In this document: piece after piece, positions 5,901 through 53,520 of the stretch
Numbering within the stretch: the first letter of the stretch is position 1
Layout of the letters: each line of letters starts with the position of its first letter
Assembly (NCBI GenBank): GCA_001600815.1
Contig: BCKZ01000006.1
Coordinates: forward strand, 1,026,137 to 1,090,136
DNA length: 64,000 nt
Direction of reading: 5' to 3'
Origin: Alloascoidea hylecoeti
Taxonomy: Eukaryota
Made by a program: the position numbers and the translations under genes
Notes under the pieces: generated by a model
Told to the model about the DNA's origin: nothing
Database searches by the model: none
What the model saw: the letters and a program-made list of their open reading frames with translations, nothing else

Positions 5901-8900
5901 ATTAACATTCAATGATTATCTTCATCATCTGAATTTAATATCAATAATGCTGCGATTCTTGGTAAACTTCATTGTTGCAAAACCCAAAACCTCTCCGCGA
6001 TTGAACCCTTCAATAAATTGTCCTCCCTCCTTTAGTACAGTTTGATGTGATTTAGATTGATGGTTTAACAATTTGGAGTTGGGCTTACATGCCAGCCATA
6101 ATTTGATCACACTAAGCTCTTACAATCTTTTTCACTCCATACTATTTATATCAATAATGTAGCTTTTCTTTTTTAATACCTCTTCTACGGCAGACCGCTG
6201 AGATTTGAAGTCTGATCGAGACTCAAAGATTTGAAATCTGCAGCAATTGTTTTCGGGTTCTGGATTTTTACACATACAGTATGCATGATCTTCTTTTAAT
6301 GTTCTATGCATATGCATAATTACTATCTTATATAATCCCTCACCCTACTAGTATCTTTCATTAGCGGTCGTTTTCCACCCGACTGCCGGTTCATTCGACT
6401 TAAGCTAATATAAGGTATATGGTATATGAGTCTGATTCAATATAATCAACTCCCAAAGTACTGTATAATTAGGTCTTATTCCCATTCAAACGAGATTTTT
6501 ACGTAGTAAACGTTAACACTCAAGGATTTAAACTGTGAGTGATTATTGTGCATGTAGCGCTTAATTAGGTAATTAGAGACGTAGAGTATATGCTGCATAG
6601 TATGGGTACGAATGAAAGAAAAGATTCTTTATATTAAATAGGCTTTACTTGCCTTGACACAAATCAATAAAAATAAAATAAGAAAGAGATAAATTCCATT
6701 TTTCATTAATCTATCCGCTATTGTCTTTTAAATACCACTTAATCTTGTTGGTAGTTGGTTTTTCAAAGGAGGGTATCGGGGAAAGCCCATATTCTCCATA
6801 GTTCATTGCTATCTTATTGCATAGATAGAGTTGCAACAAGAAGCATAAAGCAATTCTCGCAGTAGATAATGGGTGTGACAAAATGGGGAACTAACAAGAA
6901 AGAAAAAAGATGTGTATTAGAGTTGGGTATTAGTCTGATATTAAAATAAAGGAGATCCAACGTTAGAAACTGGCGATTTTATAATTCAATAAGTTTTCAA
7001 GAATAGAAATAATTAGACTACAAGGTCTTACAGCGTGCGCATTCTTTAGCAAATAGAAAATCAAAAGCCTATACACATCTTTCATAAATTTCTAAAAATA
7101 AATCTATCTGTTTTTATAGTTATATCGATCGCTAAGTGGAACTTTTTTCAGACGCTTTATTATAGCAACTCTTCTCGCACTGATTGTCATCAAGAAATTG
7201 ATTTTATTTCTTCAATCTTTTATTTTACTGGCTCTTCTACATTACAAGCAGTTAAGAACCCTGCTGAAAACTTTTTCATATTATCACCTACAACAATGTT
7301 CAGGTTGTGATTTGATATACGAGTAGTTGAATCTTAATTACTTCGTATTTTCCGCTAACAACATAAGCTTTGTGATTAACAACACGCTTTTTTCATGGAT
7401 AGCTTTATCAAGTGGTAATTCACCTTCTGGGCCCCTTATATTATCATCCAGAATTCTTTCCTTATCAAGAGCCGAGGGCTGTAATGGAATCTAAAACCAG
7501 ATGCGATATTCTTTTTAATTTAGTCTAATTTCTTCCTTTTCTTTATATAATATTATACCAAGAAAATCGACCTCTTGACATCTATGTGATTTCGACTCTC
7601 TTAAGTAAAATTCTTGAGTTTCTTCATATAAATATCCTTTTAATATTATTTGGCTACGCAGTTGAGAAGATAAAGATTAATTATATATTAGTTAGTTTAG
7701 CTATAAGGGAGTTCCCTTCTTTATTAGGATCAGGATATTATATATGAAGCTGTCTAGCAGGTTTTCTCTGGAAAGAAACAGAAGCATCAAGAACTTTTAA
7801 TATGGAAGAATGCACAAATAGAATAACATGTGTTTCTTACAGGTATCTAGATATTCATACTGTTATACACTAAAAAAAAAAAAAAAAATAGATACTAATA
7901 TAATCACATTGTGAGCAAATAACGAACCCCTTTCCCCATCTCTAAGGTTTTTAGATCATGAACTCTGAGGGGTAAACTGAAGAATATCCCTAGTGTGCTC
8001 CAATCTCATAGTGAAATTTTTTTTTTGCTCGCACAAGTCATTTAACCTATACTCTAGGAAAGGCACAGGAACACTCCAAAACAGCGACAGTCCCTTCGTA
8101 ATATTTTAGGGTTCAGCTACACTAAATATGTTACTAGTGGCGCTATCTAAATGTCAAACATGGGATGTCCCTTTCCCGCTTTGACTTAAGGTTCTCTGTT
8201 GCCGTGATGGTTAGCGGTGGTTTCTTTTGAAAGGAATTAAGTTTTTTATGTTTCACAAAATTGTTGTTGTATTCTCCTTCAGCGAAAGAACGCACCATTG
8301 CCAAGGAACCTGTCAAAATTTAGATTGATATTCCTTTAAATAAATATCAGCTGATAGCTTGTCAATTATCTTATTATTGTAGTTTGATAATTGGTATTAA
8401 CTATTACAATTCAATTGCTACGACAGACCATCAACGGTTGACAAGATTCTTAATTAAATAAAACTAACTATAAATGAATATTCCTCTTTTTATTTTTATA
8501 TAATAAAATTAGCCTCATAAAATGAGTGTTTAAATAAAGTAAGGCTAACATATTTATATTAAAACATATAATTTTTTAAATTTATATAAAAGTATACAAT
8601 AAATTTTTTTCAGACGTAGTAATGGTATAAATGAAATTTAAAAAATGAAAAGTAAAAATAAAACTATAACGAAAAAATGAAAAGGAAAAAGAAATATGAA
8701 AATAAAAAAAGGAAAAAATGACAAAAGAAAATTGAAAAAGTAAATAGTTATTCAACAAATGAAATCGACAACAAAGACAACTTTTATTTTTTTAAAAAAA
8801 TAATGTAAAATTGAAGGATAATATAATATAATATAGTATAGTATAATAAAAGATAATACTGTATAATATAATCAGTATAAGTATAGTTTAGTTAGTGTAG

Positions 8901-8964
8901 CTATATTTTTAATAATAATGTAAATAAAAAAGATACAATTGCAAATTAAAAAAAAAAAATAAGA

Positions 8965-9030
8965 AAATGTAAATGTAGAATAGAATGTAAATGTAAATGT
9001 AAATGTGAATATGAATATGAATGGAAATGG
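8965..9030. repeat. Degenerate hexamer tandem repeat (AAATGT/GAATAT/AAATGG) within an A-rich low-complexity tract
   Basis: Visible run aaatgt aaatgt ... gaatat gaatat gaatgg aaatgg inside the poly(A)-rich 8450-9500 region. Confidence 0.8.
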
Positions 9031-9529
9031 AAAAATATAAATTCGTAGTAAAACAAAAAAATATAAAAAAGAAAATAAACCAAGCCAACCTTTTTTTTTT
9101 TTTTAATTTGCAATTTCAAAAATACAAATAAATATAAAAAAAAAAAAAAATTAAAAAATATTTTTATAAATATCATATTCTTTAAAAAATTCTTTCTCAA
9201 TTTGTTAAAAATAGTTAAAAACCAAATGAGTAAAATATTGCAAAATAAAATAAAATAAAATAAAAGAAAAACATAAATATTTTTAATGATGATACCAATA
9301 AACAAGCATTTTTATGTCATTGTCCCTTGTCATTATCAATATTTAATGTTATATAATGCATATGAAGAAATGAATCAATTTTTGACTATTAATATATGGT
9401 CATTGTGTATATTTTGTTTTGTTGTGTGATGCTTTTTTTTTTTTATATATATAATAATGCAAATAAAAAAAAAGAATAATACAAAAAAAAATTTATGTTT
9501 TTATAATTAATTGGGAACTTTTTTATTTT

Positions 9530-12500
9530 TTATTTTTTCCATCTTCTTGATAATTTTCTTTTTCCAAATGATTGTTTTTTACTTTTTCTACTACAAGAAC
9601 TTTCATTATCATTATTTTCAATTTGTAAATGATTATTCATTAATTTTTCAGCATTTGTTAAACCAGGTAATTCAGAAGATTCCCAATCAAATTCAGGTCT
9701 TCTTGCATCAATTGAAATTCTTGGTAAATGAGAAATTCTTGAATTAATTGGAGTTAATGGTGATAAACCATTAATAAATTCTGATGATATATCAATTGAT
9801 GGTCTTTGCATATATTGACCATTTTTAATCATTTCAATTCTTCTATTTTCTAAAGATTGTTGAATTGATGATGTTGTTTGAATTGGATTTAAAATATTTG
9901 ATTCTTGTTTTACTATTGATGCTAAAGTTGGACAACTATTATCTTCATTATTGTTGGAGTTATACATAATTTTTGGCATATTAATTGGACTTGTTGGGGT
10001 ATTATTATTAATAATTGATTCTTGTTGAACACCTTCTTTATCATAAATATGCATATCAATTGAAGTATTTATTGAAACATCTAAAGAATTTGTTGATCCA
10101 TGATTTGAAATATTATTTGAATATAATAAATTTGATGATTGTTGTGGTGGTTGTAAAGTTAATGAAGAATCTATTTTTCCATTATTATTATTATTAATTT
10201 CATTTACTGATAATGAAGAATTATTTTTTGATGATGATGGTTGTAAATATAATGATGTTGGATTTTCTAAATCTAAATGATCTTTTTGTTTATTTGTTGT
10301 TGTATTAAATATAAATTCTTCTTCAATTTCATTTTCATTTTCATTTTCATTATGATTATGATTATGATTATCATTTATTTTTTCATCATCACATAATTTT
10401 GATAAATTTGAATGAATTTTTTCAACATTTGGATCAGTTGGATCATAATTTTTTGGATAATTTTTAAAATCACCCATAACAACTCTTTCTCTAATAATAT
10501 CAATATCTTTTGGATTATAAATTTTTTCAACACAATCATAAATAAATCTTGGCATTAAACAAGTTATAACACCAACAATAGTACATGTCCAAAACATTAG
10601 AGTTGAATAAGTTGAAGCAGCAGAATGATAAAATGGACCAGAAATTGTTGTTGATGTCCAAATACCAGTCCATAAAAAAACAAATAAAGTTGAACCAATA
10701 ACTGTTATAATTGATAAAATATCCCATCTATATTGTCTCATTAAAACATAAAAATTACAACTTATAACTGATATAGTTGCAACTAACATACCAATTTCAT
10801 ATCTATGATCAACAGGTAAACCATTAAATGAAACAAAATCAGTAAATTGATAAATTATAAAAGGATAAAAGAATGATATAACAGATTGATAAATTCCATC
10901 AAACATATAATACCAAAATTTTGTATTATTCCATTCACTTCTTAAAATTCCAGTTCTATATAATTGTGGAACAGCTAAAGAAACTGAATGATCAACATCT
11001 TGATCAAAAACTCCTAATAGAATAACGGGAGCAGAAGTGAAAACCAAATTATAAAAAGTTAAATAGGTATATTCAAATAAATAAGAACCATCAAAATCAT
11101 TATAAATTCCATACCAAAATAATGCTAAAGTAAAAACAACATTTTTATAAAAAAAACATGGAATCATTTCTGATAATCGCTTATATGACCATCTACCATG
11201 AATTAAAATTAATCTTGTTAAAAATCTAAATTGAGCAATTGCATAATCAGAAGACATTGCAGCTTGTCTACCTTCTTCACCAGCAATTCCAATACCAACA
11301 TCAGCTTCTTGAATCATTGCAACATCATTTGATCCATCACCAATTGCTAAAGTCATAACATCAAGGGAATTTTTAACAAGTCTAACAACAGCAGCTTTTT
11401 GAGCAGGACTTACACGACAACAAAGAACAGATCTACATTGTTTACATAACAATAAGAATTTTCTTTGTAAATCAATTCCAATAATTTGTTTTAAAGCATC
11501 ACCATCGATAATAACTGCAAAATTTCCAATTGGAGGAGAATGATTTAATTTTGCTTTTTCTAATTCATCATTTGATCCAAACATATTAAAATTATCTAAT
11601 AATAATTTTGAAATAATTTTATCAGCTTCTTCAATTGTTTGTTCATTTTCTAATCTTATAACTAATAAATTCATACCATTTTGTAATAAATTACAAGAAA
11701 AGCCAATATTTATTGCAGTTTCTACTTTATCACCAGTTAATACCCATAATTTAATACCAGCTTTTGATAATATTTCAATTGAATCTGGTACACCATCTTG
11801 TAATTTATCTTCAATTGCTGTACCACCAATTAATATTAAATCTGTTTCTAAAGATTCAGAAACTTTATCAATTTTTAAATCTCTATCAATTATTGATGAT
11901 GATGCTTCAATATAATTTTTATTAAAAATTTGATATTCTTGAAGAGTTAAAATTTTATATGATATACATAATGTTCTTAAACCTTCAGTTGCAAATTGTT
12001 CTAAATGTAAAGCAGTTTTTTCAAGAATTTCTTGATTATTTTTTAATTTATCTAATCTTGAATAAATAATTGAATCAGCACCTTTACAAATTAAAACAAT
12101 ATCATAATTTTTATTATCATTTTCATTTTCATTTTCATTTTCATTTTCATTTTCTTCTTCAATTGGAGGAGGTTTAAAATCTGATTTAAATAAATTTTTT
12201 GGAATTTTAACAATAACACTCATTCTTTTCCTTGTTGAATCAAAAGGTATAACATTTAATATTTTAAATTTTAAATTTTTTAAATTAAAAATATTTAAAT
12301 TTAAAAAACCTGAAGAATTTCGATTAATTAAACTAAAACCAACATCACGAGCTGTACCAACCAATGCTTGTTCATCAGGACTTTCAGCTCTTAAATGAAT
12401 TTTTGATGTAAATTTATCAACTTCTGTTAAAACTGAATTACAAAGTGCTAAATATAACATAAAATTTTGATTTGATAATTTTTGATCATTTTCTTCAAAA

Positions 12501-14342
12501 GTTGTTAAATCTAAAGCAAAATCAGATGATATAAATGTTAAATTATCATCAATTAATTGATCATTATTAAAAGAATCATGTAAAATTTTTAACATTTTTG
12601 ATTTATCTTTTGATATTTGAAATTTTTGTTTTTTAATTTCTTCATCAACATTAATTAAACCATTTTGTTTTTGTAATCCTGCCATTGCTTCAGTATAAGC
12701 TAAACCATAAGATTTCCCATTAATTGTACATTTTTTAAATTCCATTATATTTTGAGTTAATGTACCAGTTTTATCAGAAAAAATATATTCAATTTGTCCT
12801 AAATCATCAGAAATATTCCAAGATTTTGGAGTACATGGATAATCCAATGGTTTATAATATAATAAAACATCCCAATGAATAAATAAAGCTTGTAAAGATT
12901 TAATTAATTCAATTGATATATATAGAGATATTGGGACTAATGATTGATATAATATAAGACCAACGAAAAAAGCTAATATACCATTTAAAGCAGGAGTTGA
13001 AGCATATGAACCATATTCAAAATATAAAGCAGATGAAGTATTTTTTGTATAAAAAACACCATTTATAATACCAGTTAATAAACATAATATAAAAAGTAAT
13101 ATAAAATTCATAATTACAGAAAAATTTAAATCTTTTGAAATTCTAGATTTTTTTGAAGGAGTTTCACCAGCATTAAGCATAATTTTTGAATCAATACCAG
13201 TAAATAAAACAATACCAATAACCCATTTTGTATTTCTTAGAGTACAACCACGAAGTAAAACATTATTTATAGAAATTGGTTCAATTAAATCTTCATCATT
13301 TTGTCTTTGATGGAAAGTACCATTATAAGAGTATAAATTTAAATGAGGTAATTCAGAATCAATGTAAAAACCAATATTTAAGAAATCTTTTGAATGAATT
13401 AAAGAAGAAGTTAACTTTAAACCTTGTTTTTGTTTTAAATTTGTTTCGCCATCTAAATTTTTTGTTTCTATATAACAAGAATTTGAATCTAAATTTGAAG
13501 TTGATAATATAGCTAAATCAGCAGGAATTTCTTCATTATTATGAATACGAATGATATCACCAACTTTTACATTTTTCCAATATTCTTTTTTAAAGTTAAT
13601 TTCATTTGAAGGAGAAATTTCGGAATTTGTATGGTGGGGGGGGGCCCGTCTGATAGTTTCAAAACTTGAAATTGAAGACCTTGGGCCAGCAAGATCATTC
13701 AATTGAATATTATTTTTTAGTTTTCTATTTTTAAGATAGTTTGAGAAGTGGGCCAAAGAGTGGGAGGTTTTCTTTTTTATGGATCGCCATAGGGAGATAT
13801 GCTCGGTTGATACGTTGACGTTAGGGACACCTCTTAGGACGTGAGTTGGGGTGTTGTTTAGCAGCAGGTCCTGCGAGGCTCTGCGGGTGTCCTCCAACGC
13901 GTCTTTTGCGGCAGTGACGGCAACGATGGCAATAAGAGGCACAGCAGCCAGAACGGGATTATCCACGCCAAAAATAGTAAAGCACTGGATCGTTAGGATC
14001 GTTAGTAAGCGAGGGTTCACGGACAGGCAGTATAGGCAGGAAAGTACTCACTCCTAGCACGACCATGAACAGGAAGTAGGCATTTGCGACGTTGCTGAAC
14101 TGGAAAAGCAGGTTTTTGGGGATGAACGAGAGAGGGGTGTAGCGGGTGGTTCGGATCTTGTTTCGCGCGAAGGTCTGCGTGGGCAGGCCGTCCGGGTCCA
14201 CCAAGTTGGGGGGCAGCGGCAGGTTGTAGAGCACGTGGCGGCCCTCGCCCTCGCCCGGAGCCTCGCACGCCGCCTGGAGATCGGAGGAGCTCGCGGAAGT
14301 GGCCGCGGAGGTGCCCGCGGACAGCTCGGAAGACATGGACAT
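9530..14342 (-). CDS. DNF1: P4-type ATPase phospholipid flippase, Dnf1/Dnf2 type; exons 14342-14052 and 13984-9530 (1581 aa)
   Basis: Motifs RNKIRTTRYTPLSFIPKNL, ETKNLDGETNLK, DKTGTLT (phosphorylated Asp), ESPDE, KGAD, TGDKVETAINIG, CCRVSPAQKA and GDGSNDV. Splicing joins ...FMVVLG to CFTIFGVDNP, matching the Dnf1/2 TM1-TM2 segment. DNF1 and DNF2 cannot be distinguished. Confidence 0.93.
13985..14051 (-). other. Spliceosomal intron (67 nt, phase 0) in the P4-ATPase gene
   Basis: GTGAGT donor at 14051, TACTAAC branch point at 14007-14001, CAG acceptor ending at 13985. Removal restores one reading frame. Confidence 0.92.
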
Positions 14343-14749
14343 TTTGTTTGTTCTGATTCAAAGAGTGTGTGGAAGTTAGGAAGTTAGGAAGTTGGCAAGT
14401 TAACGAGATTATTATCCGGAATGTGGCACGTGATGACTGTTACCCAGGTGTTACCCGGGTGGTATGGGTCACGTGTGCCCAGCCGGCTCACTGCAGCCAT
14501 GTGCCGTCCACGTGCCTTCCTACACACGTGCTTCCACACACGTGCCGCGTTCACATGAAAACGGACGGCCGGACTCAGAAACACCCGCCGCCCGCACGCA
14601 CCGGGGCACATTCACGCTGCCCATACAACGCCCATACAACACACACACACACACCCGGGTCGCGTTCTTTTTGTGGAGATCCTCCCCACGTCCGCACGGC
14701 CACGTCTGTATATAAATCCTCACTTTCCCTCTTCTCCTCTTCAGTCTTA
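14343..14749. promoter_or_regulatory. Divergent DNF1/CAT2 promoter with clustered E-boxes, a Reb1-like site and a TATA box
   Basis: CACGTG at 14427, 14470 (GTCACGTG), 14509, 14525 and 14539. TTACCCG at 14451-14457. TATATAAA at 14709-14716. GGAAGTTA tandem at 14371-14402. Confidence 0.7.
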
Positions 14750-16735
14750 ATGTCTGCTCTTTTTCGTCGTCTCCCTCTCGCGAAACACCTCCCAAACAAC
14801 CTGAGAACTTTCGAAATGCATTTTTCTTCCTCTGCCCTGCTAAAATCCTCAACGGCTGCCTCTGCTGCTGCTTCGGCTGCTGCTTCGGCTGCTGTCTCGG
14901 CTAATCCCACCGCTGGCATCGTCGAAGATAAATCAAAAGGTGCTACTTTGCGTTTCCAAGACTCTCTGCCTCGTCTGCCCGTTCCGACTTTGGAAGAGAC
15001 CGCCGCCAAATATCTCAAATCGCTACAGCCGTTGGTCAAATCCGAGGATGAATTTAATAAAACTAAGCAAATCGTTTTGGATTTTATAAAACCAAATGGT
15101 ATAGGTTCTACTCTGCAACAACGTCTTTTGAAAAAAGCTGCTGATCCAAATGTTAAGAATTGGATCTATGACTGGTGGAATGAAGCTGCTTATATGGCTT
15201 ATCGTGATCCCGTTGTTCCTTATGTCTCTTATTTTTATGTCCATAAACAAGATAAACTATCTTTATTAAAAGGAATTTCTTATAGAGCTGCAACTATTAC
15301 AAAAGCTGCTCTACAATTTAAAAATCTTGTTGACTCAAAAGAATTAGAACCTGAATATATGAGAAAATCTCCAATTTGTATGGATTCTTACCAATATATG
15401 TTTAATACTACAAGATTACCTGCTGAAAAAGCTGATACTACAAAACAATATCCTGCTGAAGATAATAAATTTATTATTGTTATTAGAAAAAATAAATTTT
15501 TTAAAGTTCAACATGAAATTAATGGTAAAGAATTATCCGTTGATGAATTAAATGAACAATTTAAATCAATTTATAATGAAACTTCTAAACTTGATTCAAC
15601 AACTATTCCATCAATTGGTTCATTAACTTCAGAAAATCGTGATAAATGGGTTGAATTTCGTAAAAATTTAATTTCTTCTTCTTCATCAAATTTAAAATCT
15701 TTAGAAACAATTGAAGCTTCTTCTTTTATTGTTTGTTTAGATGAAGAAAAACCTGTTACTTTGGTTGAAAGAGCAAGACAAATGTGGCATGGTAATGGAA
15801 CAAATAGATTTTATGATAAACCTTTACAATTTATTATAACTGATAATGGTGTTGCTGGTTTTATTGGTGAACATTCAATGATGGATGGTACTCCAACTTT
15901 AAGATTAAATGATTATGTTAATGATGTTATTTTTAATAAAAAATTAAATTATGGTACATCATCATCATCATCAAATTTATCAAAACCTGAAGAAATTAAA
16001 TTTAATTTAAATGATTTAAATTTAAATAATATTAATGAATCAAAAAATGATTTTAATCAAGTTATTAATAATCATGAATTATCTGTTTTAAATTATAATA
16101 AATTTGGTAAAAATTTAATTAAAAAATTTAAATGTTCACCTGATGCATTTGTTCAATTAATTATTCAATTAGGTTATTTTAAAATGTTTGGAATTTTAAG
16201 ACCAACTTATGAATCTGCAACTACAAGACAATATCAATTAGGTAGAACAGAAACAACAAGATCTGTATCATCAGAAATGAAATCATTTGTTGAAAAAATG
16301 GAAAATCCTTTATTAACAAATGATGAAAAATTAAAATCTGCAAGATTAGCAATTCAATCACATTTAAAATATATTTCTGATGCCTCAATTGGAAAAGGTG
16401 TTGATCGTCATTTCTTTGGTTTAAAAAAATCTTTATTACCAAATGAAAATTTACCTGAAATTTTTAAAGATCCAATTTTTTCTTATTCTTCTTCTTGGTA
16501 TTTATCAACTTCTCAATTATCAAGTGAATATTTAACTGGTTATGGTTGGTCTCAAGTAATTGATGAAGGTTTTGGTTGTGCTTATATGATTAATAATGAT
16601 TGGTTAAATATTAATATTGTTTCTAAAAAATTAGGTACTGAGAAATTAAAATATTATTTAGAAGAAGCTGCTGATGATTTAAAACAAGTTTTTGAATCTG
16701 AATTGTTAAAGGAAGCTCCAAAGGCTAAATTGTAA
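14750..16735 (+). CDS. CAT2: Carnitine O-acetyltransferase, mitochondrial/peroxisomal (661 aa)
   Basis: QDSLPRLPVPTLEET, NRFYDKP, catalytic GEHSMMDG, TYESATTR..GRTET and LSTSQ motifs. Arg/Leu/Ser-rich presequence from ATG 14750 just after a TATA box. C-terminal PTS1 AKL. Confidence 0.95.
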   Translation: MSALFRRLPLAKHLPNNLRTFEMHFSSSALLKSSTAASAAASAAASAAVSANPTAGIVEDKSKGATLRFQDSLPRLPVPTLEETAAKYLKSLQPLVKSEDEFNKTKQIVLDFIKPNGIGSTLQQRLLKKAADPNVKNWIYDWWNEAAYMAYRDPVVPYVSYFYVHKQDKLSLLKGISYRAATITKAALQFKNLVDSKELEPEYMRKSPICMDSYQYMFNTTRLPAEKADTTKQYPAEDNKFIIVIRKNKFFKVQHEINGKELSVDELNEQFKSIYNETSKLDSTTIPSIGSLTSENRDKWVEFRKNLISSSSSNLKSLETIEASSFIVCLDEEKPVTLVERARQMWHGNGTNRFYDKPLQFIITDNGVAGFIGEHSMMDGTPTLRLNDYVNDVIFNKKLNYGTSSSSSNLSKPEEIKFNLNDLNLNNINESKNDFNQVINNHELSVLNYNKFGKNLIKKFKCSPDAFVQLIIQLGYFKMFGILRPTYESATTRQYQLGRTETTRSVSSEMKSFVEKMENPLLTNDEKLKSARLAIQSHLKYISDASIGKGVDRHFFGLKKSLLPNENLPEIFKDPIFSYSSSWYLSTSQLSSEYLTGYGWSQVIDEGFGCAYMINNDWLNINIVSKKLGTEKLKYYLEEAADDLKQVFESELLKEAPKAKL

Positions 16736-18550
16736 GAAAATTGAAAGAGAGTTTTTGTGATATATATATATAATTACAAAAGATGTTTAGTTTATATAAA
16801 CTATTTGTGTGAATGAATGAAATTGTTCATAATTAGCGTGATTGCTAATCTTACCCTTAGATTCACTGTAACTCAAAATCAAAATCAAAACTGAAGAAAA
16901 AAAAAAAAAGAATTATACTGTAGTTTTTCTCATATTATTATAATGAATACTCTTATGATAATGCAAATATATTTTAATTATAAACTATAAGATATCTATT
17001 GTAACCTAGCTATATAACCTACAGTATAATTTTGATAATAGTAGTGACTGTTGATAATTAAATATTTATATAAACCACCTTACCAAATGATAAATATTTT
17101 TTGGCTATTATTATTATAGCTTTTATGATTATACCTTTCTGAAATTATTAATTGAGTCACTTTTAATTTTTTTTATTTTTATTTTCAATCCATCACATAT
17201 ATCATGTAATGATGAAATATCAATGACTTATTAAAAATTCAGGTTATATATTTAATATTTGAAAGGATTATTTGTTATTTGAAATGGTTAGGGTTGTAAT
17301 TGGAAAGAATAAAAGTATGAATTATTGAATTTTTTTTTTTTTTTTCATATTGATCAAATGTGATTTATATTGGGATACTCCAGATCTTCAATCTTTAAGA
17401 TTTTAAAATTAAATTATTTCCTATTTATACCAAACTCCTCCAAAAATAAAAAATACCCATATGTAAATTTTTTTATACCCCTCCGTTAATTATTAAGTGG
17501 TTCGGGGTCAAATGATAATTTCTATTTTTGTGTATTATATTAATAAGTTCAATATTCCAATGTAAATTTAAATTTTTTTCGCTATTGTTTGAAATAATGA
17601 AATCAAATTCGAATGCCACTAAAAAAAATTTATCTAGATATAGCCTATTATGAATAAACAATGTAGATATTAGTTTATTACCCCTTTAATATTGATAAAT
17701 AATTTGAAATAGAAATATTCCTAATAATAAGGAACTTGTTGATGACATTTTAAAAGCTAAATAGCTCGTCTTTTAAAGTCCATACAGGCATTTATCCATA
17801 CCAAAATTATTGATAGTAGCTATATGGGGTGGGGTAGGATACTTGAAGTGACCTAGACGACCCGACCGGGCACAATATACCATTCTTTTCATTCTTTTCA
17901 GGAACTACAGTAGTTTACAAAAATACATTATTATCTATATCACTTATTTAAAAAGTTATTAAAAATTGTATACGTACTACGTAGTAACATTTTTGTTATC
18001 CTGAAAGATCTATTGATCATATTTAAAACCAATTTGAATTTTGAACAATCACAATAATACTAGTACTGGTTTACTGTTAACCACCCACCACAAACAGAAT
18101 ACAAATACAAACAGAACACATACATAAAATATGCAGGGTCCTGCAAACGAGAAGGAATTCAGCTAAACTAAAGCTAAACAAAAGATGGTCCCTTCAAGTT
18201 TTCAAGGGAATTTAATATTTAGTGCTTTCTATGAATCTGGCTCACTTAAGTACCGATCACGATAGTGCTGAAACATGTGGTATTGAACAGAGAAACCCGG
18301 GAAGAATCTTCAAACTTACCGAATAGTTGTTAGTAGTTAGTAGTTAGTCACTCTTGGCGAAAAAAAAATCAAAAGCATTATTAAGTTTTTGGTCTAAAAA
18401 AGTGAAGTTACCATTCGAACTGGGAACTAGACAAGTCGTGAAAAAAGTCACGTTTGGAGAAAGTTCATTTTTGGGAGAGTTTTCGACTACCATAGAGAAA
18501 CATTCTTGTTAGAGTTTGTGTTTTCTTTTCGATATCGTTTGTATCTCATT

Positions 18551-19249
18551 TTATTTGTTAACTTTCATGTCAAACATATGCAGTAAATGAGTAGCATCCT
18601 CTTCAGTCATCGAATATTTTACCACCAAATCTCCTAACCACTTTACGTTCTTCTGAATATGAGCTTCTTTAGATTTTTCCCCCGGATCTGATTCAGTAGA
18701 TTCATTTGCATCTGGTTTATCTGTGTTTTCTTTATTTGAAGCACAAAATTTATACACTTCTTTTGTGTTTTCTTTATTTGAAGCACAAAATTTGTACACT
18801 TCTTTTGTGTTTTCTCGGTTATATTTTAACTCTGGATGTCGTTCCCGGAACTTATGCATCCAATCATCACACATATAGTGATCGTTCTTGGCTTTAGAAA
18901 ACGTTCTGAGATTGCCCGGATTGCTTAAAATATGAGTATCGATAAACTCATCAACTATGTCAAAAAAATGTCGTTTATCTGGGGCACATCCAACTTCCGC
19001 AAGTTCTAGAATACTCTTTGAGATTTCGGCTTCCTCTGAAACTGTAAGTTTTTGTCTCAATTGATCGCATATAGCTTTGGAAACAGATCCATTAAGTCGC
19101 CGTCTAAGTGTGTTTGGACTCACTTCATAATCCTTTGCGATGCGTCCGATTTTCTTGTTAGGGAATTCCCGAGCATTTAAAATAGCTGCTTCTATATTGT
19201 GAGCACTTATTATTTTCTTAGCTTCTTTTTTGGAATTTCTATAGACCAT
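18551..19249 (-). mobile_element. Pogo/Fot1-family transposase-derived ORF: Psq-type HTH plus CENP-B/Tc5-type HTH, no catalytic domain (232 aa)
   Basis: IEAAI..IGRIAKDYEVSPNTLRRRLNG (HTH_psq-like); RQKLTVSEEAEI..I and DDWMHKFRERHPELK (HTH_Tnp_Tc5-like). The ORF ends before any DDD/DDE motif, and no TIRs were found. Confidence 0.75.
18722..18815 (-). repeat. 42-bp coding tandem repeat, about 2.2 copies (ENTKEVYKFCASNK)
   Basis: Units begin at 18722, 18764 and 18806 on the + strand, with one synonymous mismatch between the two full copies. Confidence 0.95.
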
Positions 19250-21023
19250 TCTGGGTCAATATTGAGGGTTTTAAAAAGTTAAGTTTCGCGGAAGAAGAAA
19301 ATTTCATGTGATGTAGGACTTGAACCCCTTATTTTACTTAATTTAGACCACATTTTGAGCTAATACCTTTAATTTTGATGAATAATTATCAAAAAACTCC
19401 TTTACTAATTAAACATTATTATACTTTAAGCTTAAGTAGTATATAATTATATAATTTAACCGAAGAGAAAAAGTAATTAGTGAAAAAGGTGGACAAATAT
19501 TAGTTTCAAAAAAGTAGCCGAAATTAAGTGGAAACAGTAAGGTGAATTGAAAGTTTGGTGTCAGCGATACATAGTACTCTCGTTACTTTGCTTAGATTTT
19601 AAAGCGATATAGAATGCCTGATGGACTTACCAACTCTTTAATTACTTGTCTGAGTTACAATTCATTAGAAAATCTGGCTAATGCCTGTGGAGCACTGTGG
19701 ATGTTTTCGCTACAACGTGGTATTAATATTTAGGTACCTGGTGATAAATTGATTCGCAAATTTGTAAAGGTATTTTTCGTCATTTGAAAATCAATTGGGA
19801 TGCGATTAATTACATAACAAAGGTTGACAGATAAATACTTAAAATCAATAATTGTAAGTTTCAATTAAAATATACTCTCTCTCCAGAAAGATATAACTGT
19901 CTATATGACTGATGTCAGTTGCATTGCTATAGGTAAATCATCATAGTAGAATTAATAGTGAAAAAATATAATGACAATATCGAATTCGAAATCCTCTTTA
20001 AAGATCAATAGTTCCAATCAATTAGGTCTACATGTTCGTTAATAAATCACTTTACGGATATAAAACTGAATCACAGCCATTAAGATCAATTAATTTAAAA
20101 TTAAGTACGCATATAACAAGTTTATATCGGAGAGCTCTTATTTCCTTAAGATACATTATGGTTAGAATTAATTTTCATTATATAAAGCAAATTTATTATA
20201 TTATTGCATTGAGTGAATCAATAATTTATAATTGGTCATGATTTCTTTCCATTTCCAGGTTCGTAAGCTAGTGTATTCTATTTTTTATCTTGATTATAAA
20301 CCATAAGATTCTTATATGTTAACGTTGGTCTCTATCTAGATCGTGAAGCAATGAAACCGAAAGAAAAAAGAAAACAAAAAAAAAAGAAAGCATTTATAAG
20401 ACGTAGAGGTGGAAATAAAGAAAAGCATACATACATAGGTACATAGGTACCGTAATAATATAAGAGGTATATTATAGATTTTAGTATAGTCTTTTAATAT
20501 AACGTTAACATATCATAGCTAATATAATTATAAAAAATAGTATTTAAAAAAATTTAAAATTTAAAATTTAAAATTGGTGTTTTGAGTAAAAAAAGAAAGT
20601 AAAAAAAAAAGGCCATCCAGTAAATATAAACTGTTATGAATTATTAATAAATTTTAGCACAAGTCAATCTTTTTAAAATAATGACATTTTTGTTTTATTT
20701 TATTTTGATTCAAAAAAAAAAAAAAGTAAAAAAATAGAAAAAGAAAAAAAGTAAGTGATAAATAAAGACAAACAAATAACAACAAGCAAATTGAACCGTT
20801 ACACAACATAATATACTTTGACTATGAGACAATAAAACAAAAATATTAATTAGGGAAAAGTAGAATAAAACCAAGGTTGATGTAGGAAATTCAAAAGAGT
20901 ATATGATACAAATTAGCAATAATAGTTTTATTTCATTGAATTATCATAGTACACACATTTGAAAGGAAAAAAAATCTCTTTTTCTTTTTTTTTATTCTTA
21001 CTCTTATTTTTTATAATTTATAA

Positions 21024-22874
21024 TTATAATTCCATTTCATCACCAAAATCCATTGGATGATCGTCTCTATCATCTGACTTCTCACCTGAATTTATTCCTG
21101 TATAAAGATATTGATCATCTTCATCTTCAAAATTAACATTAAAAAAATCATCATCAGATCCGACTAATTTTTCATAAATATATTTTGCTTCAGTAACTAT
21201 TCCATCATATGAAATTTCTGTAGTTGGATTTGAAACAAAAATAACTTTTGGATCATCTTCATCGTCATCACCATCATCATTTGTTGTTGTGGTTGTTGCT
21301 GTTGTACCATTTGTCGTTTTATTTGGATAAACCTCCGAATTAATAGATTCAAATGTTTTAGTATTTATAATTGTCATTGGAGGAATAGATGTGAATTGTG
21401 TAAAACATAATTTAAGCATATATTGTAATCTTTCCTTTGGAACAAAATCTTTTAAGCTTTGGCCTAATTTTACAGATGCAATAATTGGTAATCCATCAGG
21501 TCTAAAACTTATATCATTTTGATCAATTAATCCACCATCAAATTCAAAATCTTCTGTTGATTCACGTAATATAGAAACTTCCATGTTTTTCAAAGCAGCT
21601 TCTAAATCATAACGAGCTTTTTCACCCTGTTCTGTTGTTGATAGATACCAAACGGATTGACCTTGAGGACAAACAGCAGTAGCACCATTCATAATAATTG
21701 CATGAACTGCATGTACATTATTTGTATTCAAAGAACCAGGTGGGAAAACAACAACTGCAGAGTTTTCATTTTCAGCCATCCATTCTTTACAATCTTTTGA
21801 AACAACTGCAATTAATCTTGTTATCTCGTATTTTGCCTTTGGAGGTTTCAAATTTCCAAAAGGTTTTGATAAGCTATATTGAGAAGATGCACAAACAACA
21901 TGTTCATTTACTTTCATAGTTGAGCCATCATTGAAATGAGCAATTCCTGTCTTATCATCATATTTGGTTAATTTGGTGTTTAATTTGTAAGTGGCACCAG
22001 CAACAGCGGCAGAACGACAAAAACCTTGTGATAATTCACCAGGACCACCAAATTTCGAAACAAGAGTTGGAAAGTTACCATAAGCATCGAATGAAACCAA
22101 ATACCTTTTAATACGAGCAAGTGCTACTGTAGTTGGAGTATCAATTGTTGAACAAAGGCCAATCGAATGTACCAATTCAGCAATCTGAGGTTTTTCTAAT
22201 TTAAATTTCTCAGTTAAAAATTTTGTAATTGAATCATTTGTATATTGACTCCAAATCTCGGGGGATTTTTCCCATTCTAAAACGAATTTCATAAATTTCA
22301 TTAAATTTCTCTTTATTGAAACAGATAAAGTATTATTAATGAAAATATCTTCTTTCGTACTTGCCATTTTTTCAAAGGAATCATTTTCAAAAGTATGAAA
22401 GTTGCCAAGGGCCTGGAATTCCAAATACCTGAAAACTCTGCTCTGAATAAGCAGCAGGAGGAGATCTGAACGAGCAAACAAGATACGCGGTGTTAAGTCG
22501 ATAGCATAGTCACGAGAGTTGAGACTGGTGGGTCTGGGGATGTATAAATTTGCCTTTGCGAAGCCGCGATTTACGTACTGACCGTTGTTGACGTTCTGGA
22601 CCCAGGTTTTTAGCTGCTCAATATTTAAAGTCGCGTTCATATCACCATAATGAGGGTTTGCATCAACATGGAAGACAGAAGTTCCCTGCCAGGCCAGTGC
22701 GGCCGCGAGGATCGACTCGACCAGACCCGATCCCGCAATCAACACATCGCATTCGCGGGGAGTCGGGTCCATAGTGGGACGGTCTAGTCCAGCCAGTTGT
22801 GGGAGGGCGACAGAGGGACGTCTCTGCTGGGACGACGAAGAGGGCCGGCGGTCACGATCTGAAAAAGAGGTCAT
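21024..22874 (-). CDS. MRS6: Rab escort protein (Rab geranylgeranyltransferase component A), 616 aa
   Basis: RRPS..LAG..DVLIAGSGLVESILAAALAWQG, YLEFQ, GGPGELSQGFCRSAAVAGATYKLN, TEISYDG and C-terminal EMEL match yeast Mrs6. The first ATG is at 22874; the ORF-track start at 22892 is TTG. Confidence 0.93.
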   Translation of the reverse strand: MTSFSDRDRRPSSSSQQRRPSVALPQLAGLDRPTMDPTPRECDVLIAGSGLVESILAAALAWQGTSVFHVDANPHYGDMNATLNIEQLKTWVQNVNNGQYVNRGFAKANLYIPRPTSLNSRDYAIDLTPRILFARSDLLLLLIQSRVFRYLEFQALGNFHTFENDSFEKMASTKEDIFINNTLSVSIKRNLMKFMKFVLEWEKSPEIWSQYTNDSITKFLTEKFKLEKPQIAELVHSIGLCSTIDTPTTVALARIKRYLVSFDAYGNFPTLVSKFGGPGELSQGFCRSAAVAGATYKLNTKLTKYDDKTGIAHFNDGSTMKVNEHVVCASSQYSLSKPFGNLKPPKAKYEITRLIAVVSKDCKEWMAENENSAVVVFPPGSLNTNNVHAVHAIIMNGATAVCPQGQSVWYLSTTEQGEKARYDLEAALKNMEVSILRESTEDFEFDGGLIDQNDISFRPDGLPIIASVKLGQSLKDFVPKERLQYMLKLCFTQFTSIPPMTIINTKTFESINSEVYPNKTTNGTTATTTTTNDDGDDDEDDPKVIFVSNPTTEISYDGIVTEAKYIYEKLVGSDDDFFNVNFEDEDDQYLYTGINSGEKSDDRDDHPMDFGDEMEL

Positions 22875-22973
22875 TAATACTGCAATTGCCAAGTTGTTGA
22901 TTACACTACTAATAATAAATAGGTGAGTGAGAAATTTTTAGATTCAATGCTATGTTAACACCCGTACACCCAT

Positions 22974-24221
22974 TTACTCCAGATCTTCCCATTGAACTCC
23001 AATCCACTCCTCCACATATCCAACTTGTGTCTTTTCGTCAAGAACGACATTAGTATCGTCTGCTGCGGTAGTGACAATTAGTGTGCCCCATTCCATACCT
23101 TGCTCCAGAATCTCTTTCTCCGTCTTGGAGTCTTCAAAAATTGAAATCAAATAGGGCATAAGCTGTAACTCAAATATCCGTCCCTGGGGCAATTCTTTAT
23201 GTCCATTAAACATATGGTAAATTTCTCCTTTAGAAGAGTAAAGTAGTGGCCGACCTCCACGATTATAGCGTAGCACCTGTTCGGGATCGGATGACACAAT
23301 TTCAAGGAAATGCTGAAATGAGCTATCAATATTTGTACCTTCATATAATGATCCAATGTTATCTTTCTTATTTGATGATGATGTAGTTTCTTCTTCTTCA
23401 ATTTCGGTATCAATAGTATATTTGAAGTTATCAGGTATTTTTGGTTTCTTTAAAACCTCTTTACTAACACCGATGAAGTAGCCTGGAAGCGTTGGTAAGT
23501 CTAAATCGACAATTGTTTCTACATCTAACTTGGATTCTAACTTAGATTCTGTAGCTTCAGATTCTGTAACTTTGGACTCCTTTGAACTTGCAATGGCAGC
23601 ATAGGATGGGCCTTTAGTTTTAACTTTTTCACTGTTATTATTTGAATTTGAACTTGAGCCTGGTAATGCTGGAAATGTAATTGAAGCAAATGGATTTGTT
23701 GTATTCCCATCACCATCAAATGGATTACTATTATCAGTTGAATTAAATATATCATTTCCTAAACTAGCATTTCTCAATTCTTGCTCTTTTTGTTTTTTTA
23801 TCTTTTGTTTTTGTTCATTTTCATATTCAATTTCTGCTTTTAAATCCTTATAAATCCCTTTAATTACTCTAAAACAACTCTTACCATTTTTGGATTTTCG
23901 AAAACATGAATGTTTTAAACATCCAAATATATAAAGTACTCTTGATATAAATTCATCATATTTTATATCGTCTAATGGCGAATAAGCTTGTAAAAATAAT
24001 CCCATTTTGTCATTACATATCGGACATTTTAATAAATTTGAATCTTTTGGTGGAGTATTGTTTAACCAAATCGGTTTATTACCAATGAATGTATCATTTA
24101 TTGTTGGTTCTTCATTTCCTGGAATTGAGACATCTAAATCAGCAAATCCTAAATAAACTGTTGATTCAGTTCTGGAATTGGAGGGATAATCATCTTCTCC
24201 ATCTGATGAATAATCTGACAT
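22974..24221 (-). CDS. TSR4: PDCD2-family ribosome biogenesis factor / Rps2 chaperone (415 aa)
   Basis: VYLGFAD, FIGNKPIWL, CPIC...LFLQAYSPL, RVLYIFGC, PEQVLRY..GGRPLLYS, FELQLMP, GMEWGT and GYVEEWIGVQWE (PDCD2_C). Confidence 0.9.
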   Translation of the reverse strand: MSDYSSDGEDDYPSNSRTESTVYLGFADLDVSIPGNEEPTINDTFIGNKPIWLNNTPPKDSNLLKCPICNDKMGLFLQAYSPLDDIKYDEFISRVLYIFGCLKHSCFRKSKNGKSCFRVIKGIYKDLKAEIEYENEQKQKIKKQKEQELRNASLGNDIFNSTDNSNPFDGDGNTTNPFASITFPALPGSSSNSNNNSEKVKTKGPSYAAIASSKESKVTESEATESKLESKLDVETIVDLDLPTLPGYFIGVSKEVLKKPKIPDNFKYTIDTEIEEEETTSSSNKKDNIGSLYEGTNIDSSFQHFLEIVSSDPEQVLRYNRGGRPLLYSSKGEIYHMFNGHKELPQGRIFELQLMPYLISIFEDSKTEKEILEQGMEWGTLIVTTAADDTNVVLDEKTQVGYVEEWIGVQWEDLE

Positions 24222-24289
24222 CTTTTAAGTTATGTATAAATTATCAAGATAAAATAATAATTCTAAAAAATAACTGAATAAAGTAAATA

Positions 24290-24355
24290 GAAAAATTTCT
24301 AAGAAAAGTTATTTACTTGGTTGAAATATTTAATTTTGAGTTTCATACACGTGAT
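24290..24355 (-). promoter_or_regulatory. TSR4 promoter: RRPE-like element and Cbf1-type ATCACGTG
   Basis: GAAAAATTTC at 24290-24299 and CACGTGAT at 24348-24355, 70-135 bp upstream of a ribosome-biogenesis gene. Confidence 0.5.
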
Positions 24356-25123
24356 GTATAAGAAAGAAATTTTTTTTATTACACTTAATTTCGGCCAATT
24401 CCGTCCACTAGTTCTGTCGTTTCTACGTATATGGTTACTACATATTATCAATGAAAACAAAACACCAAATAATGCATTACTTATTTCACCAACTAACTTT
24501 GGATTTTGGTAACAACCAAAACAATGTACTGAAACTGCCATGTCACCGTAAAAGTGCCGTGACGGGTGGGTACATTTGACTATTACCTGAAGCTTTTCCA
24601 AGTTGAGACGCTCCGAAATGTGCCTTTTCATGGTAGCTTTTTGGGGTAATGGCTGGATACAGGCATTTGGCAGTAATGTCATGATTTTTGAATATTTTGT
24701 ATGAAATCAAATAAAATGGCCATGGAATGCTCATTTATGCCCACTGATTACTCCATCGACACCACTGTATGCCATGAAAATTACTAATAATTATTTCACA
24801 TATGCTGTTAATATTATTCAAGTATTACATTAAAATATTTTAACAAATCCTACGATTTATAAAGAGCAGTAATTCGTTAATTAAGTTCACGCAAATTATT
24901 ATCTATTTCCCGGACAGCTGGTTATTTGATCTTCATTCAAAAATTCACAGCAATCATGCATATCATTTTTTATTATATTATGTATTTGAATCAGAGAAAA
25001 ATAGTATAGGAACAGAGGAAAGTTCATATTCGTCACGAGTACCCTTTCTTTTCTTCACATCTGTTATTGCAAAAAGTCATAGTATTAGTGAACGTAAACA
25101 ACAACCATTTGAACAATTGCAAC

Positions 25124-25291
25124 ATGCTCTTACTCAATATCCAGCCAACAACCGATTGTGTTTCTTATCTCCCTTATGAATTATCTGAAATTATTTTCTT
25201 GGATTTGGCACTAACAACTTTACTTAATTGTAGAAGAGTCTCTAAAGCATGGAAACAAATAAAAAATGATGATACAAAGGCAATCGTCTAG
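25124..25291 (+). pseudogene. Truncated F-box gene copy (F-box only)
   Basis: DCVSYLPYELSEIIFLDLALTTLLNCRRVSKAWKQI is an F-box consensus. It is paralogous, including its 5' leader, to the copy at 26528, and stops shortly after the F-box. Confidence 0.8.
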
Positions 25292-53059: not shown

Positions 53060-53270
53060 TGTAATTAAAGCCTGAAAGTTCTTTATATTAGAATTAGAAT
53101 TAATTTTGAGAGGGATAATATAAGAGTGAATTTGTCAATAGACCTTTTATAGATTTCAGGTGTATAATTAGCTGTATAAATGTATTATAGTATATGCTTA
53201 TTGAATGAACCCGAAATCTAATATTAATGTTAGAAATAAAAGATTTTTGAATTTTATAAATTGAAACTAA

Positions 53271-53520
53271 TGAAAAATTTCACATACTCTTAAATTTTTT
53301 TGTTTTCTCTATTATATCTTGAAGTCTTATAGTTGATAAAAATTCCTCCAAATATATGATAATCCTGTTTGATTAATATAATAGATACTTTTAAAATGGA
53401 ATAATAAAGATATAAGATATATCAATGTTATTCTGTCACAAAAAACGTCTTAAAATTTAATTTGAGTAAAAAAATATTAATTTTAAAGAAGTTTTTGCAT
53501 AAGATGAGTAGAGTCACGTG
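53271..53520. promoter_or_regulatory. MDN1 promoter: RRPE, PAC core and Cbf1-type site
   Basis: TGAAAAATTT at 53271-53280, GATGAG at 53503-53508 and GTCACGTG at 53513-53520, upstream of a Ribi gene. Confidence 0.6.

Follow-up and report, generated by a model that had tools for sequence, protein, structure and literature searches.

A kilobase-scale GC island at a divergent promoter of the yeast Alloascoidea hylecoeti, a probable footprint of a recombination hotspot

In Saccharomyces and in yeasts of the Candida clade, GC3 rises towards DSB-bearing promoters, a pattern that the sections of Marsolier-Kergoat 2011 considered here attribute to GC-biased gene conversion (gBGC) (PMC3020949), and regional GC3 peaks in yeasts have been attributed to the same process (Lynch et al. 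2010, PMC2997560). Whether recombination really shapes the GC content of yeasts remains disputed, since Saccharomyces shows only a small effect; in S. cerevisiae, according to the same sections of the former study, gBGC is weak, with an average GC3 amplitude of about 0.09-0.12, and conversion tracts have a lambda of about 1.0-1.4 per kb (PMC3020949). In Cryptococcus neoformans, the GC-rich intergenic stretch that separates RPO41 from BSP2 is a measured gene-conversion hotspot (Sun et al. 2012, PMC3390403), and GC-rich hotspots flank MAT, as part of an earlier report describes (Hsueh et al. 2006, PMC1630710). Excerpts of two vertebrate studies report recombination hotspots with GC peaks at promoters or CpG islands in dogs, which lack PRDM9 (PMC3861134), and describe gerbil gBGC islands as extreme (PMC7574485).

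The locus described here, in a window of 64,000 nucleotides from Alloascoidea hylecoeti, resembles the yeast pattern in that GC3 peaks beside an intergenic promoter and falls off into the coding sequence on a scale of about 0.5-1 kb; AT-rich yeasts are likewise known to have deep troughs of GC3, of 6-11% (PMC3020949, in the sections considered, and PMC2997560). Unlike the published values in the parts of those reports compared, which are averages over thousands of genes or 15-gene sliding windows, this single locus swings by ~0.9 GC3 within 600 bp, an amplitude to be set against the S. cerevisiae average given above. Furthermore, GC3 here saturates near 1, the deepest troughs of the window adjoin the peak, and nothing of the kind is seen at most of the window's promoters. 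The island is most likely a known effect in unusually extreme form. Our literature search, made in the texts of articles, returned no description of kb-scale islands with a GC3 of ~0.9 in an AT-rich budding yeast.

While the window as a whole has a GC content of 31.3%, its maximal-scoring GC-rich segment, GC island 1 (13781..15047; unstranded, like the promoter and all other compositional segments below), extends over ~1.3 kb at 55.9% GC and peaks at 72% at 14201-14300 in a 100-bp profile. A preceding sequence-only reading had placed the island at 13780..15050, nearly the computed segment, and its G+C counts proved exact (44/60 at 14221-14280, 4/60 at 12241-12300, and 7/60 at 16021-16080). A GC content of at least 0.45 was reached in 32 of 1277 sliding windows of 200 bp (step 50), 23 of them in 13751-15050 and 9 in 22401-23000. 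The best 1300-bp window has a GC content of 0.555, and the maximum in 200 shuffles was 0.374 for single bases and 0.400 for 50-bp blocks. No tRNA gene was found in the window and no Rfam match at E<=0.1 in 8000-25000, so that an RNA gene is not supported as the cause of the spike.

Island 1 covers a shared promoter and the first exons of two genes. The first, a DNF1/DNF2-like P4-ATPase flippase gene (9530..14342, minus strand, 1581 aa), was defined by frame analysis, splice signals, and Pfam (PhoLip_ATPase_C, E 6.6e-87), with exon 1 at 14052-14342, an intron at 13985-14051, and exon 2 at 9530-13984; its closest homologues are the Dnf1/Dnf2 proteins of budding yeasts, at 51-62% identity. The second is CAT2, a carnitine O-acetyltransferase gene (14750..16735, plus strand, 661 aa) identified by its translation and by homologues carrying PF00755, the best of which is 62% identical; it has a second in-frame ATG at 14816, and its protein ends in AKL. 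The divergent intergenic promoter between them (14343..14749, 407 bp, 54.5% GC) contains a TATA box, TATATAAA at 14709-14716, short tandem repeats, an (AC)8 run, and five CACGTG boxes within 118 bp at 14427-14544, accounting for 5 of the 12 occurrences of this motif in the window (2.9 expected).

The compositional shift touches every site class: synonymous sites, the intron, intergenic sequence, and the choice of amino acids. That GC3 should track the GC peak had been set beforehand as a test, and GC3 indeed falls inside the flippase gene, from 0.87-0.97 in codons 1-75 through 0.50-0.67 up to about codon 180 to 0.00-0.10 thereafter, and inside CAT2, from 0.40-0.53 in codons 1-105 to 0.00-0.13. 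The sequence-only reading had described G/C-ending codons near both starts, which is fully borne out for the flippase gene, while in CAT2 only about half of the codons end in this way. GC1 and GC2 of the flippase gene are raised within the island too, and 34 of the 67 nt of its intron (GTGAGT...TACTAAC...CAG) are G+C. Judged against 60 homologues, flippase residues 1-180 depart from the consensus 22 times towards G/A/R/P and 6 times towards F/Y/M/I/N/K, and residues 181-1350 do so 57 and 119 times, respectively (Fisher p 5e-6). In CAT2, the corresponding counts are 5 and 8 for residues 56-143 and 24 and 79 for residues 144-661. A single gene thus passes from about 95% to about 3% synonymous GC, and its protein is dragged in opposite directions.

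Selection could in principle favor a GC-rich promoter together with the first few hundred bases of its genes, acting through nucleosome exclusion or positioning, through clustered transcription factor sites (the CACGTG boxes, for example), through the stability of transcripts, or through a CpG-island state free of methylation. The island does coincide with a genuine promoter, which has a TATA box and clustered CACGTG boxes, but the push of conserved proteins towards G/A/R/P residues speaks against selection of this kind, as does the behavior of CAT2 in other organisms. A search of metagenome contigs yielded 13 CAT2 loci, each 52-63% identical, and a 5' GC3 peak is absent in 11 distant ones (first 90 matched codons minus the rest, -0.15 to +0.06); therefore, the peak is not a property of the gene.

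A CpG island is formally defined by a length of >200 bp, a GC content of >50%, and a CpG o/e of >0.6. Over 1300 bp, with a GC content of 0.555 and a CpG o/e of 0.97, island 1 falls within this definition, which favors selection for a CpG-island state. The earlier description of the landscape as CpG-island-like thus holds in form; the noncoding background, with a CpG o/e of 0.78 (a mild depletion; GpC, 1.11), gives no sign of methylation and counts against such selection. Noncoding trough sequence has 11 CpGs, with 18.9 expected, and coding trough sequence has a CpG o/e of 0.18-0.29, a value confounded by codon structure. Methylation-type CpG decay as the main cause was set aside, the noncoding depletion being mild and the coding values being confounded, and CpG decay could not account for the non-CpG G+C shift in any case. 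Moreover, the 97 CpGs of island 1 contribute just 194 of its ~720 G+C, and therefore CpG protection cannot explain the shift. Considering these data and the second island described below, we regard selection as quite improbable.

The second island, 8 kb away and smaller than the first, is centred on another intergenic spacer. Its core (22404..22856, 53.6% GC) is the second-best GC-rich segment of the window, and the raised GC content extends to ~23300, across a 99-bp spacer (22875-22973) that itself has just ~35% GC. To one side lies a Rab-escort/GDI-family, MRS6-like gene (21024..22874, minus strand; Pfam GDI, E 1.1e-41), the GC3 of which drops from 0.58 in codons 1-100 to 0.08-0.20; to the other lies a TSR4-like gene with a PDCD2_C domain (22974..24221, minus strand; Pfam PDCD2_C, E 3.4e-27), the GC3 of which climbs from 0.10-0.14 at the 5' end to 0.38-0.44 at the 3' end, inside the island. 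As GC3 in island 2 is raised not only at the 5' end of the downstream gene but also at the upstream gene's 3' end, the effect is positional and not bound to 5' coding ends. The extent of island 2 over a 3' coding end, together with the mere ~35% GC of its own spacer, likewise fits selection on promoters poorly. Only these two islands were seen in a window with about a dozen long ORFs, and the GC3 of the midasin gene is lower at both ends than in the interior, the opposite of the general yeast pattern; promoters as such are therefore not GC-raising here. No repeats common to the two islands were found, nor were inverted or dispersed repeats.

The midpoint of island 1 (14414) lies inside the intergenic spacer, and the island is symmetric about it, with a half-width of ~750 bp and a decay length of ~540 bp. 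The best single GC3 step is 764 bp away from 14500 in the flippase gene and 744 bp away in CAT2, and a saturating gBGC model gives L = 537 and 540 bp, with the same GC3 floor of 0.039-0.045 in three genes. This decay is on the scale of S. cerevisiae conversion tracts as given in the sections of the source considered (PMC3020949). Which shape fits best differs among genes, and the comparison of exponential, step, and saturating gBGC models is not decisive: in the flippase gene the saturating gBGC model is best (-lnL 401.7; step, 407.0; exponential, 413.2), while a single sharp step beats the decay models in CAT2 (210.3 versus 216.3) and in the MRS6-like gene (299.0 versus 301.8).

Such steps, together with edges that are fairly sharp over a few hundred bases, would suit a foreign or ectopic tract. 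In that case, gene conversion would have put ~1.3-1.5 kb of a GC-rich relative (by introgression or in an old hybrid) or of a GC-rich paralogous copy in place of the original sequence, and both genes would carry a step-like edge inside them. Against this, flippase GC3 forms two plateaus best fitted by a graded model, and the island-coded residues 55-180 have diverged like the rest of the protein (identity relative to that among homologues, 0.81 versus 0.83). None of the 60 flippase homologues stands out for the island part, where identities range from 0.52 to 0.635 (0.57-0.655 in the rest). In agreement with the sequence-only reading, which had argued from continuous homology that an insertion is unlikely, protein homology is unbroken over both edges and supports neither an insertion nor a foreign tract. 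Furthermore, an independent second island lies 8 kb off and shares no repeat with the first, and a donor that differs so strongly in composition would itself be unlikely to take part in homologous exchange. We therefore consider replacement by a foreign tract very improbable.

A chimeric assembly, with sequence of a GC-rich contaminant or homeologue joined in, is extremely improbable. Both reading frames, the splice signals, and homology pass through both island edges, and the change in composition is graded over hundreds of bases. In addition, of the 31-mers sampled from 12500-16500, fractions of 0.87 and 0.77 occur in two sequencing runs that belong to other samples and studies; since the island makes up ~32% of this interval, at least ~59% and ~28% of its 31-mers, respectively, must be present there.

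The two strands of the island differ in a manner that bears on its origin. Plus-strand GC skew in 100-bp windows is positive in 9/9 over 13601-14500 and negative in 6/6 over 14501-15100, and within the promoter the plus-strand counts change from G49/C28 in the left half to G46/C99 in the right half, with the flip near 14500. At third positions, all four island flanks deviate from background in the direction predicted by 5'->3' resection polarity (p = 1.5e-5, 0.01, 0.12, and 0.12; combined, 3e-6), two of the four not being significant alone. This evidence is confounded by codon usage: C exceeds G at sense-strand 4-fold sites throughout the window (381 C versus 276 G in the background). The skew polarity matches that of human hotspots in the part of the human study considered (PMC7615360), where the A>G and C>G errors made in break repair are strand-asymmetric and reach their peak at 700-800 bp from the hotspot centre.

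An alternative is local GC-biased mutation without fixation bias, in which AT->GC changes would enter directly, for example by error-prone, strand-asymmetric re-synthesis or by translesion bypass, where the promoter has a fragile site or breaks recurrently in mitosis or meiosis. The shift of every site class, the skew flip with resection polarity at the island centre, and the location of 11 of the 13 tandem-repeat (TRF) rows of 13000-16000 inside the island all agree with such mutagenesis. Nevertheless, a GC3 of 0.97 over a floor of about 0.04 demands that the mutation bias be reversed locally, very strongly and in a sustained way, for which no case is known in yeast, and the support from skew is confounded as described. 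Mutation alone appears unlikely on this balance, although one sequence cannot separate it from gBGC.

Flanking the island are the two most AT-rich segments of the window, the left trough (8446..13607, top-scoring, 22.0% GC; GC3 0.02-0.09, noncoding GC 17%) and the right trough (15462..17730, second-best, 22.3% GC; GC3 0.00-0.13, noncoding GC 21%). These bear out the earlier impression that the flanks are more AT-rich than the rest: flank GC3 is 0.02-0.09 versus 0.22-0.29 in other ORFs of the window, and flank noncoding GC is 0.17-0.21 versus 0.24-0.33 elsewhere. Centromeric GC-poor troughs occur once per chromosome, are tens to hundreds of kb wide, and surround a large intergenic region or a retrotransposon cluster (Lynch et al. 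2010, PMC2997560). The present troughs do not match this type, being just 5.2 and 2.3 kb and mostly coding; further AT-rich segments occur elsewhere in the window, and inverted repeats, as at some centromeres, and dispersed repeats were not found.

Taken from sequence alone, the data are best explained, with a probability of roughly 55%, by island 1 being the footprint of a stable recombination or DSB hotspot at the promoter made by gBGC, possibly with strand-asymmetric break-repair mutagenesis. Of what the sequence-only reading had proposed, a position-centred, non-adaptive, GC-driving process at the promoter fits the involvement of all site classes, the symmetry, and the second island, and gBGC is the form of this process that we infer. 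As expected of a hotspot gBGC footprint, GC is gained at all site classes, and the gain is centred on a likely DSB site with a decay of conversion-tract length, a sharp step also being possible for CAT2 and the MRS6-like gene. In the mechanism that we propose, a long-lived, strong DSB hotspot would sit in a nucleosome-poor stretch, the divergent promoter shared by the flippase gene and CAT2, with recurrent breaks in the intergenic region. Their repair would extend heteroduplex or conversion tracts some hundreds of bases into both genes, and gBGC would fix AT->GC changes at sites of every kind within about +/-750 bp, possibly helped by strand-asymmetric W->S errors in the re-synthesis of resected DNA. 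Past the reach of the tracts, the sequence would lie at the very AT-biased floor of the genome (GC3 about 0.04). Pure gBGC does not predict the strand skew, and simple gBGC does not predict the flanking troughs; the latter may represent a neighborhood kept recombination-cold by the strong hotspot or may result from AT-mutagenic resection. The small average amplitude in S. cerevisiae, the presence of only two islands among about a dozen long ORFs, the GC3 pattern of the midasin gene, and the better fit of a sharp step in CAT2 and the MRS6-like gene also weigh against the hotspot explanation.

Such a hotspot would resemble those of C. neoformans in its narrow GC peak, which covers intergenic DNA and the 5' ends of the genes next to it (PMC3390403 and the part of PMC1630710 considered), but conversion was measured in that basidiomycete, where the GC contrast is moderate (PMC3390403), whereas island 1 is known from its sequence; no link to a mating-type locus was seen in this window. 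With dogs and gerbils it would share stable promoter hotspots, putative here, along with kb-scale GC and CpG peaks and amino acids driven towards GC-rich codons; those excerpts concern vertebrates with DNA methylation, whereas the host here, a budding yeast, is only mildly depleted of CpG, and its genes and spacers are much smaller. Grass genes, too, have a GC3 that is high at the 5' end and falls along the gene (PMC2895627 and PMC4316631, in the sections considered), but the grass pattern is genome-wide and marks a whole gene class, whereas the island here is rare and local, and island 2 also covers a 3' gene end. If the hotspot is real, the locus would offer a very clean natural test bed for gBGC versus break-repair mutagenesis, and hotspots would be findable from sequence alone in non-model yeasts. 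Analyses of codon usage and selection in the A. hylecoeti genome must allow for kb-scale, non-adaptive shifts in composition.

More tentatively, this early-diverging budding yeast might possess few but extremely strong and stable promoter hotspots, the anatomy of which would be readable from one genome: a core (+/-750 bp) in which GC-biased repair has driven GC to saturation, a skew that flips where the breaks occur owing to resection polarity, and AT troughs of kb scale on both sides, due either to coldness imposed by the hotspot or to AT mutagenesis linked to resection. We consider this possible but doubtful; if true, the recombination map of an unstudied yeast would be predictable from composition alone, and the disputed strength of yeast gBGC would be testable where the effect is ~10x that in Saccharomyces. 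At island 2, the third-best AT-rich segment of the window (20453..21031, 18.3% GC) lies ~1.4 kb to the left.

The window contains a GC island (13781-15047) that is real, sharply bounded and centred on a promoter. The window as a whole has a GC content of 31.3%, and at least 45% GC is reached in 32 of 1277 overlapping 200-bp windows, with 23 of these lying within 13751-15050, 9 within 22401-23000 and none elsewhere. A maximal-segment scan ranked 13781-15047 (55.9% GC) first among the GC-rich segments and 22404-22856 (53.6% GC) second, and the highest-GC 1300-bp window (0.555) lay above all 200 single-base shuffles (maximum, 0.374) and all 200 block shuffles (maximum, 0.400). The sequence-only reading had counted 44/60 G+C inside this first island and 4/60 and 7/60 in the genes on its two sides, and our recount gave identical values.

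The first island covers a 407-bp divergent spacer (14343-14749), which carries several short tandem repeats and a TATA box. To its left, a DNF1/DNF2-like P4-ATPase flippase gene of 1581 aa is encoded on the minus strand (start, 14342; stop, 9530), with a 291-nt exon 1, a 67-nt intron (14051-13985) bearing GTGAGT, TACTAAC and CAG signals, and an exon 2 running to the stop; it has a PhoLip_ATPase_C match in Pfam and homologues that are 51% to 62% identical. To its right lies CAT2 (14750-16735, plus strand), whose second in-frame ATG (14816) and C-terminal AKL are compatible with the dual mitochondrial/peroxisomal targeting known for yeast CAT2. For both proteins, the top homologues belong to diverse budding yeasts, most of them early branching, and are at most 62% identical; hence, the host is a budding yeast for which no close relative has been annotated. 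A 12-bp tandem repeat rich in GC (14855-14902) encodes the Ala/Ser-rich presequence of CAT2, and a run of ten Gs on the plus strand (13633-13642) lies in flippase coding sequence at the outer island edge, with the frame open across it. The divergent promoter contains five CACGTG boxes inside 118 bp (14427-14544), partly by way of a 14-bp tandem repeat, and the window holds 12 such boxes against 2.9 expected, a number reached in 0 of 100 shuffles. From their sequence, these E-boxes look like bHLH sites, and we take them to be candidate Cbf1/Pho4-type sites. We detected no tRNA genes in the window, no Rfam matches in 8000-25000 and no repeat common to the two islands.

A chimeric assembly is disfavoured, as reading frames, splice signals and homology run unbroken across the island edges, bearing out the earlier statement that protein homology is continuous, and sequencing runs from other samples contain the words sampled from 12500-16500 at fractions of 0.87 and 0.77. 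A foreign tract is disfavoured, as flippase residues 55 to 180, which lie in the island, have diverged from homologues to the same degree as the rest of the protein (ratio of 0.81 versus 0.83) and show no outlier homologue.

The shift extends to every class of site. In the flippase gene, the G+C share at third codon positions (GC3) is 0.87 to 0.97 over codons 1 to 75, 0.50 to 0.67 to about codon 180 and 0.00 to 0.10 over the remaining 1400 codons, and in CAT2 it is 0.40 to 0.53 over codons 1 to 105 and then drops to 0.00 to 0.13. GC3 follows the GC peak in both genes, high near the flippase start, only about half G/C near that of CAT2 and then at a floor, a relationship that the sequence-only reading had proposed to check. 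Noncoding DNA behaves likewise, with 54.5% GC in the spacer and 34/67 G+C in the flippase intron, compared with 17% to 21% in trough noncoding sequence and 24% to 33% in other noncoding sequence. Relative to the consensus of 60 homologues, flippase residues 1 to 180 deviate 22 times towards G/A/R/P and 6 times towards F/Y/M/I/N/K, versus 57 and 119 times for residues 181 to 1350 (Fisher p = 5e-6 between parts); the corresponding counts are 5 and 8 for the island part of CAT2 (residues 56 to 143) and 24 and 79 for its remainder. Because every site class is shifted, a regional, non-adaptive bias is favoured over codon-level selection. A feature specific to the CAT2 gene is also disfavoured, as 11 distant CAT2 loci are without a 5' GC3 excess. 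A CpG-island or methylation reading seems improbable as the main cause. By formal criteria the island qualifies as a CpG island (CpG observed/expected ratio of 0.97), the noncoding background has a ratio of 0.78, codon structure confounds the low ratios in the troughs, and CpGs make up only about one-quarter of the island's G+C.

The best single GC3 steps fall 764 bp (flippase) and 744 bp (CAT2) from position 14500, giving the island a symmetric shape around the spacer. We fitted a saturating model of GC-biased gene conversion (gBGC), GC3 = 1/(1+k*exp(-B0*exp(-x/L))), which gave similar floors in three genes (GC3 of 0.039 to 0.045) and L values of 537 and 540 bp in the two genes of the first island, a decay length on the scale of yeast conversion tracts. 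Among three models, it fits the flippase gene best, whereas CAT2 and an MRS6-like gene at the second island are better described by a plain step. According to PMC3020949, Saccharomyces cerevisiae GC3 has a baseline of ~0.32 to 0.33, an amplitude of ~0.09 to 0.12 and a lambda of ~1.0 to 1.4 per kb; the amplitude at the first island is ~10 times that average. The best explanation, which we consider somewhat probable (roughly 0.55), is that the first island marks a stable hotspot of recombination or breakage and was produced by gBGC, either alone or together with break-repair mutagenesis.

Strand asymmetry bears on a break-centred process. Plus-strand GC skew is positive in 9/9 100-bp windows of 13601-14500 and negative in 6/6 windows of 14501-15100, with the reversal inside the spacer, whose left half has G49/C28 and whose right half has G46/C99; the flippase intron has G22/C12. 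The four island flanks all depart from background at third codon positions, and they do so in the direction that would follow if the 3'-ended strands produced by resection on either side of a central break were treated differently (p = 1.5e-5, 0.01, 0.12 and 0.12); the polarity matches that described for human hotspots (PMC7615360). We regard this evidence as no more than suggestive, as sense strands across the whole window have more C than G at four-fold sites, two of the four tests are weak, and pyrimidine tracts of the promoter may add to the skew. A version of the break-centred idea that is purely mutational appears unlikely to us.

On each side, the first island adjoins an AT-rich segment (8446-13607 and 15462-17730, each 22% GC), and these two are the strongest in the window, in agreement with the earlier impression that its flanks are more AT rich than the remaining window. 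With GC3 at 0.22 to 0.29 in other open reading frames (ORFs), the island is set in a trough rather than on background. Simple gBGC gives no prediction of such deep flanking troughs; possibly, weaker break sites are suppressed near a strong hotspot, or resected DNA suffers AT-biased damage. A centromere-type trough (PMC2997560) is disfavoured, as several troughs are present and their size and coding content fit poorly. The trough part of the flippase gene also contains AT-only codon repeats (10300-10400 and 12080-12200; Asn/Glu/His runs with 6- to 12-bp periods), a mirror image of the island's Ala/Ser repeats, which are GC rich.

The second, smaller island (22404-23300; peak, 62% GC) has the third-strongest AT-rich segment (20453-21031) ~1.4 kb to its left. 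It is centred on a 99-bp spacer (22875-22973), yet this spacer is itself AT rich, and it separates a PDCD2_C gene (TSR4-like) from a GDI-family gene (MRS6-like), both assigned by Pfam and on the minus strand. GC3 is raised at the 5' end of the downstream MRS6-like gene (0.58) and at the 3' end of the upstream TSR4-like gene (0.38 to 0.44, versus 0.10 to 0.14 at its 5' end), which ties the effect to position and not to 5' coding ends.

Two further observations do not sit neatly with this picture: only two islands are seen across about a dozen long ORFs, and GC3 in the midasin gene (MDN1; Pfam; 5014 aa; 38015-53059, minus strand) is lower at both ends (~0.09 to 0.19) than in the interior (0.22 to 0.35), the opposite of the usual yeast rise towards gene ends. 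The kind has known examples in the GC3 gradients and peaks of yeasts, a GC-rich conversion site in Cryptococcus (PMC3390403), promoter hotspots of dogs and birds, and GC islands of gerbils. In the main texts searched, we came across no account of islands like these from an AT-rich budding yeast. Its amplitude, flanking troughs and possible skew flip make the first island an extreme and potentially useful member of this known kind.

Gene density in the window is low for a budding yeast, with no ORF of at least 150 aa (standard code) in 3000-9500, 24700-30400 or 53100-57000. A 232-aa ORF without a Pfam match (18551-19249) carries a tandem duplication of 42 bp that is nearly perfect (98% identity; 18722-18805), and the sole N of the window is at 59431.
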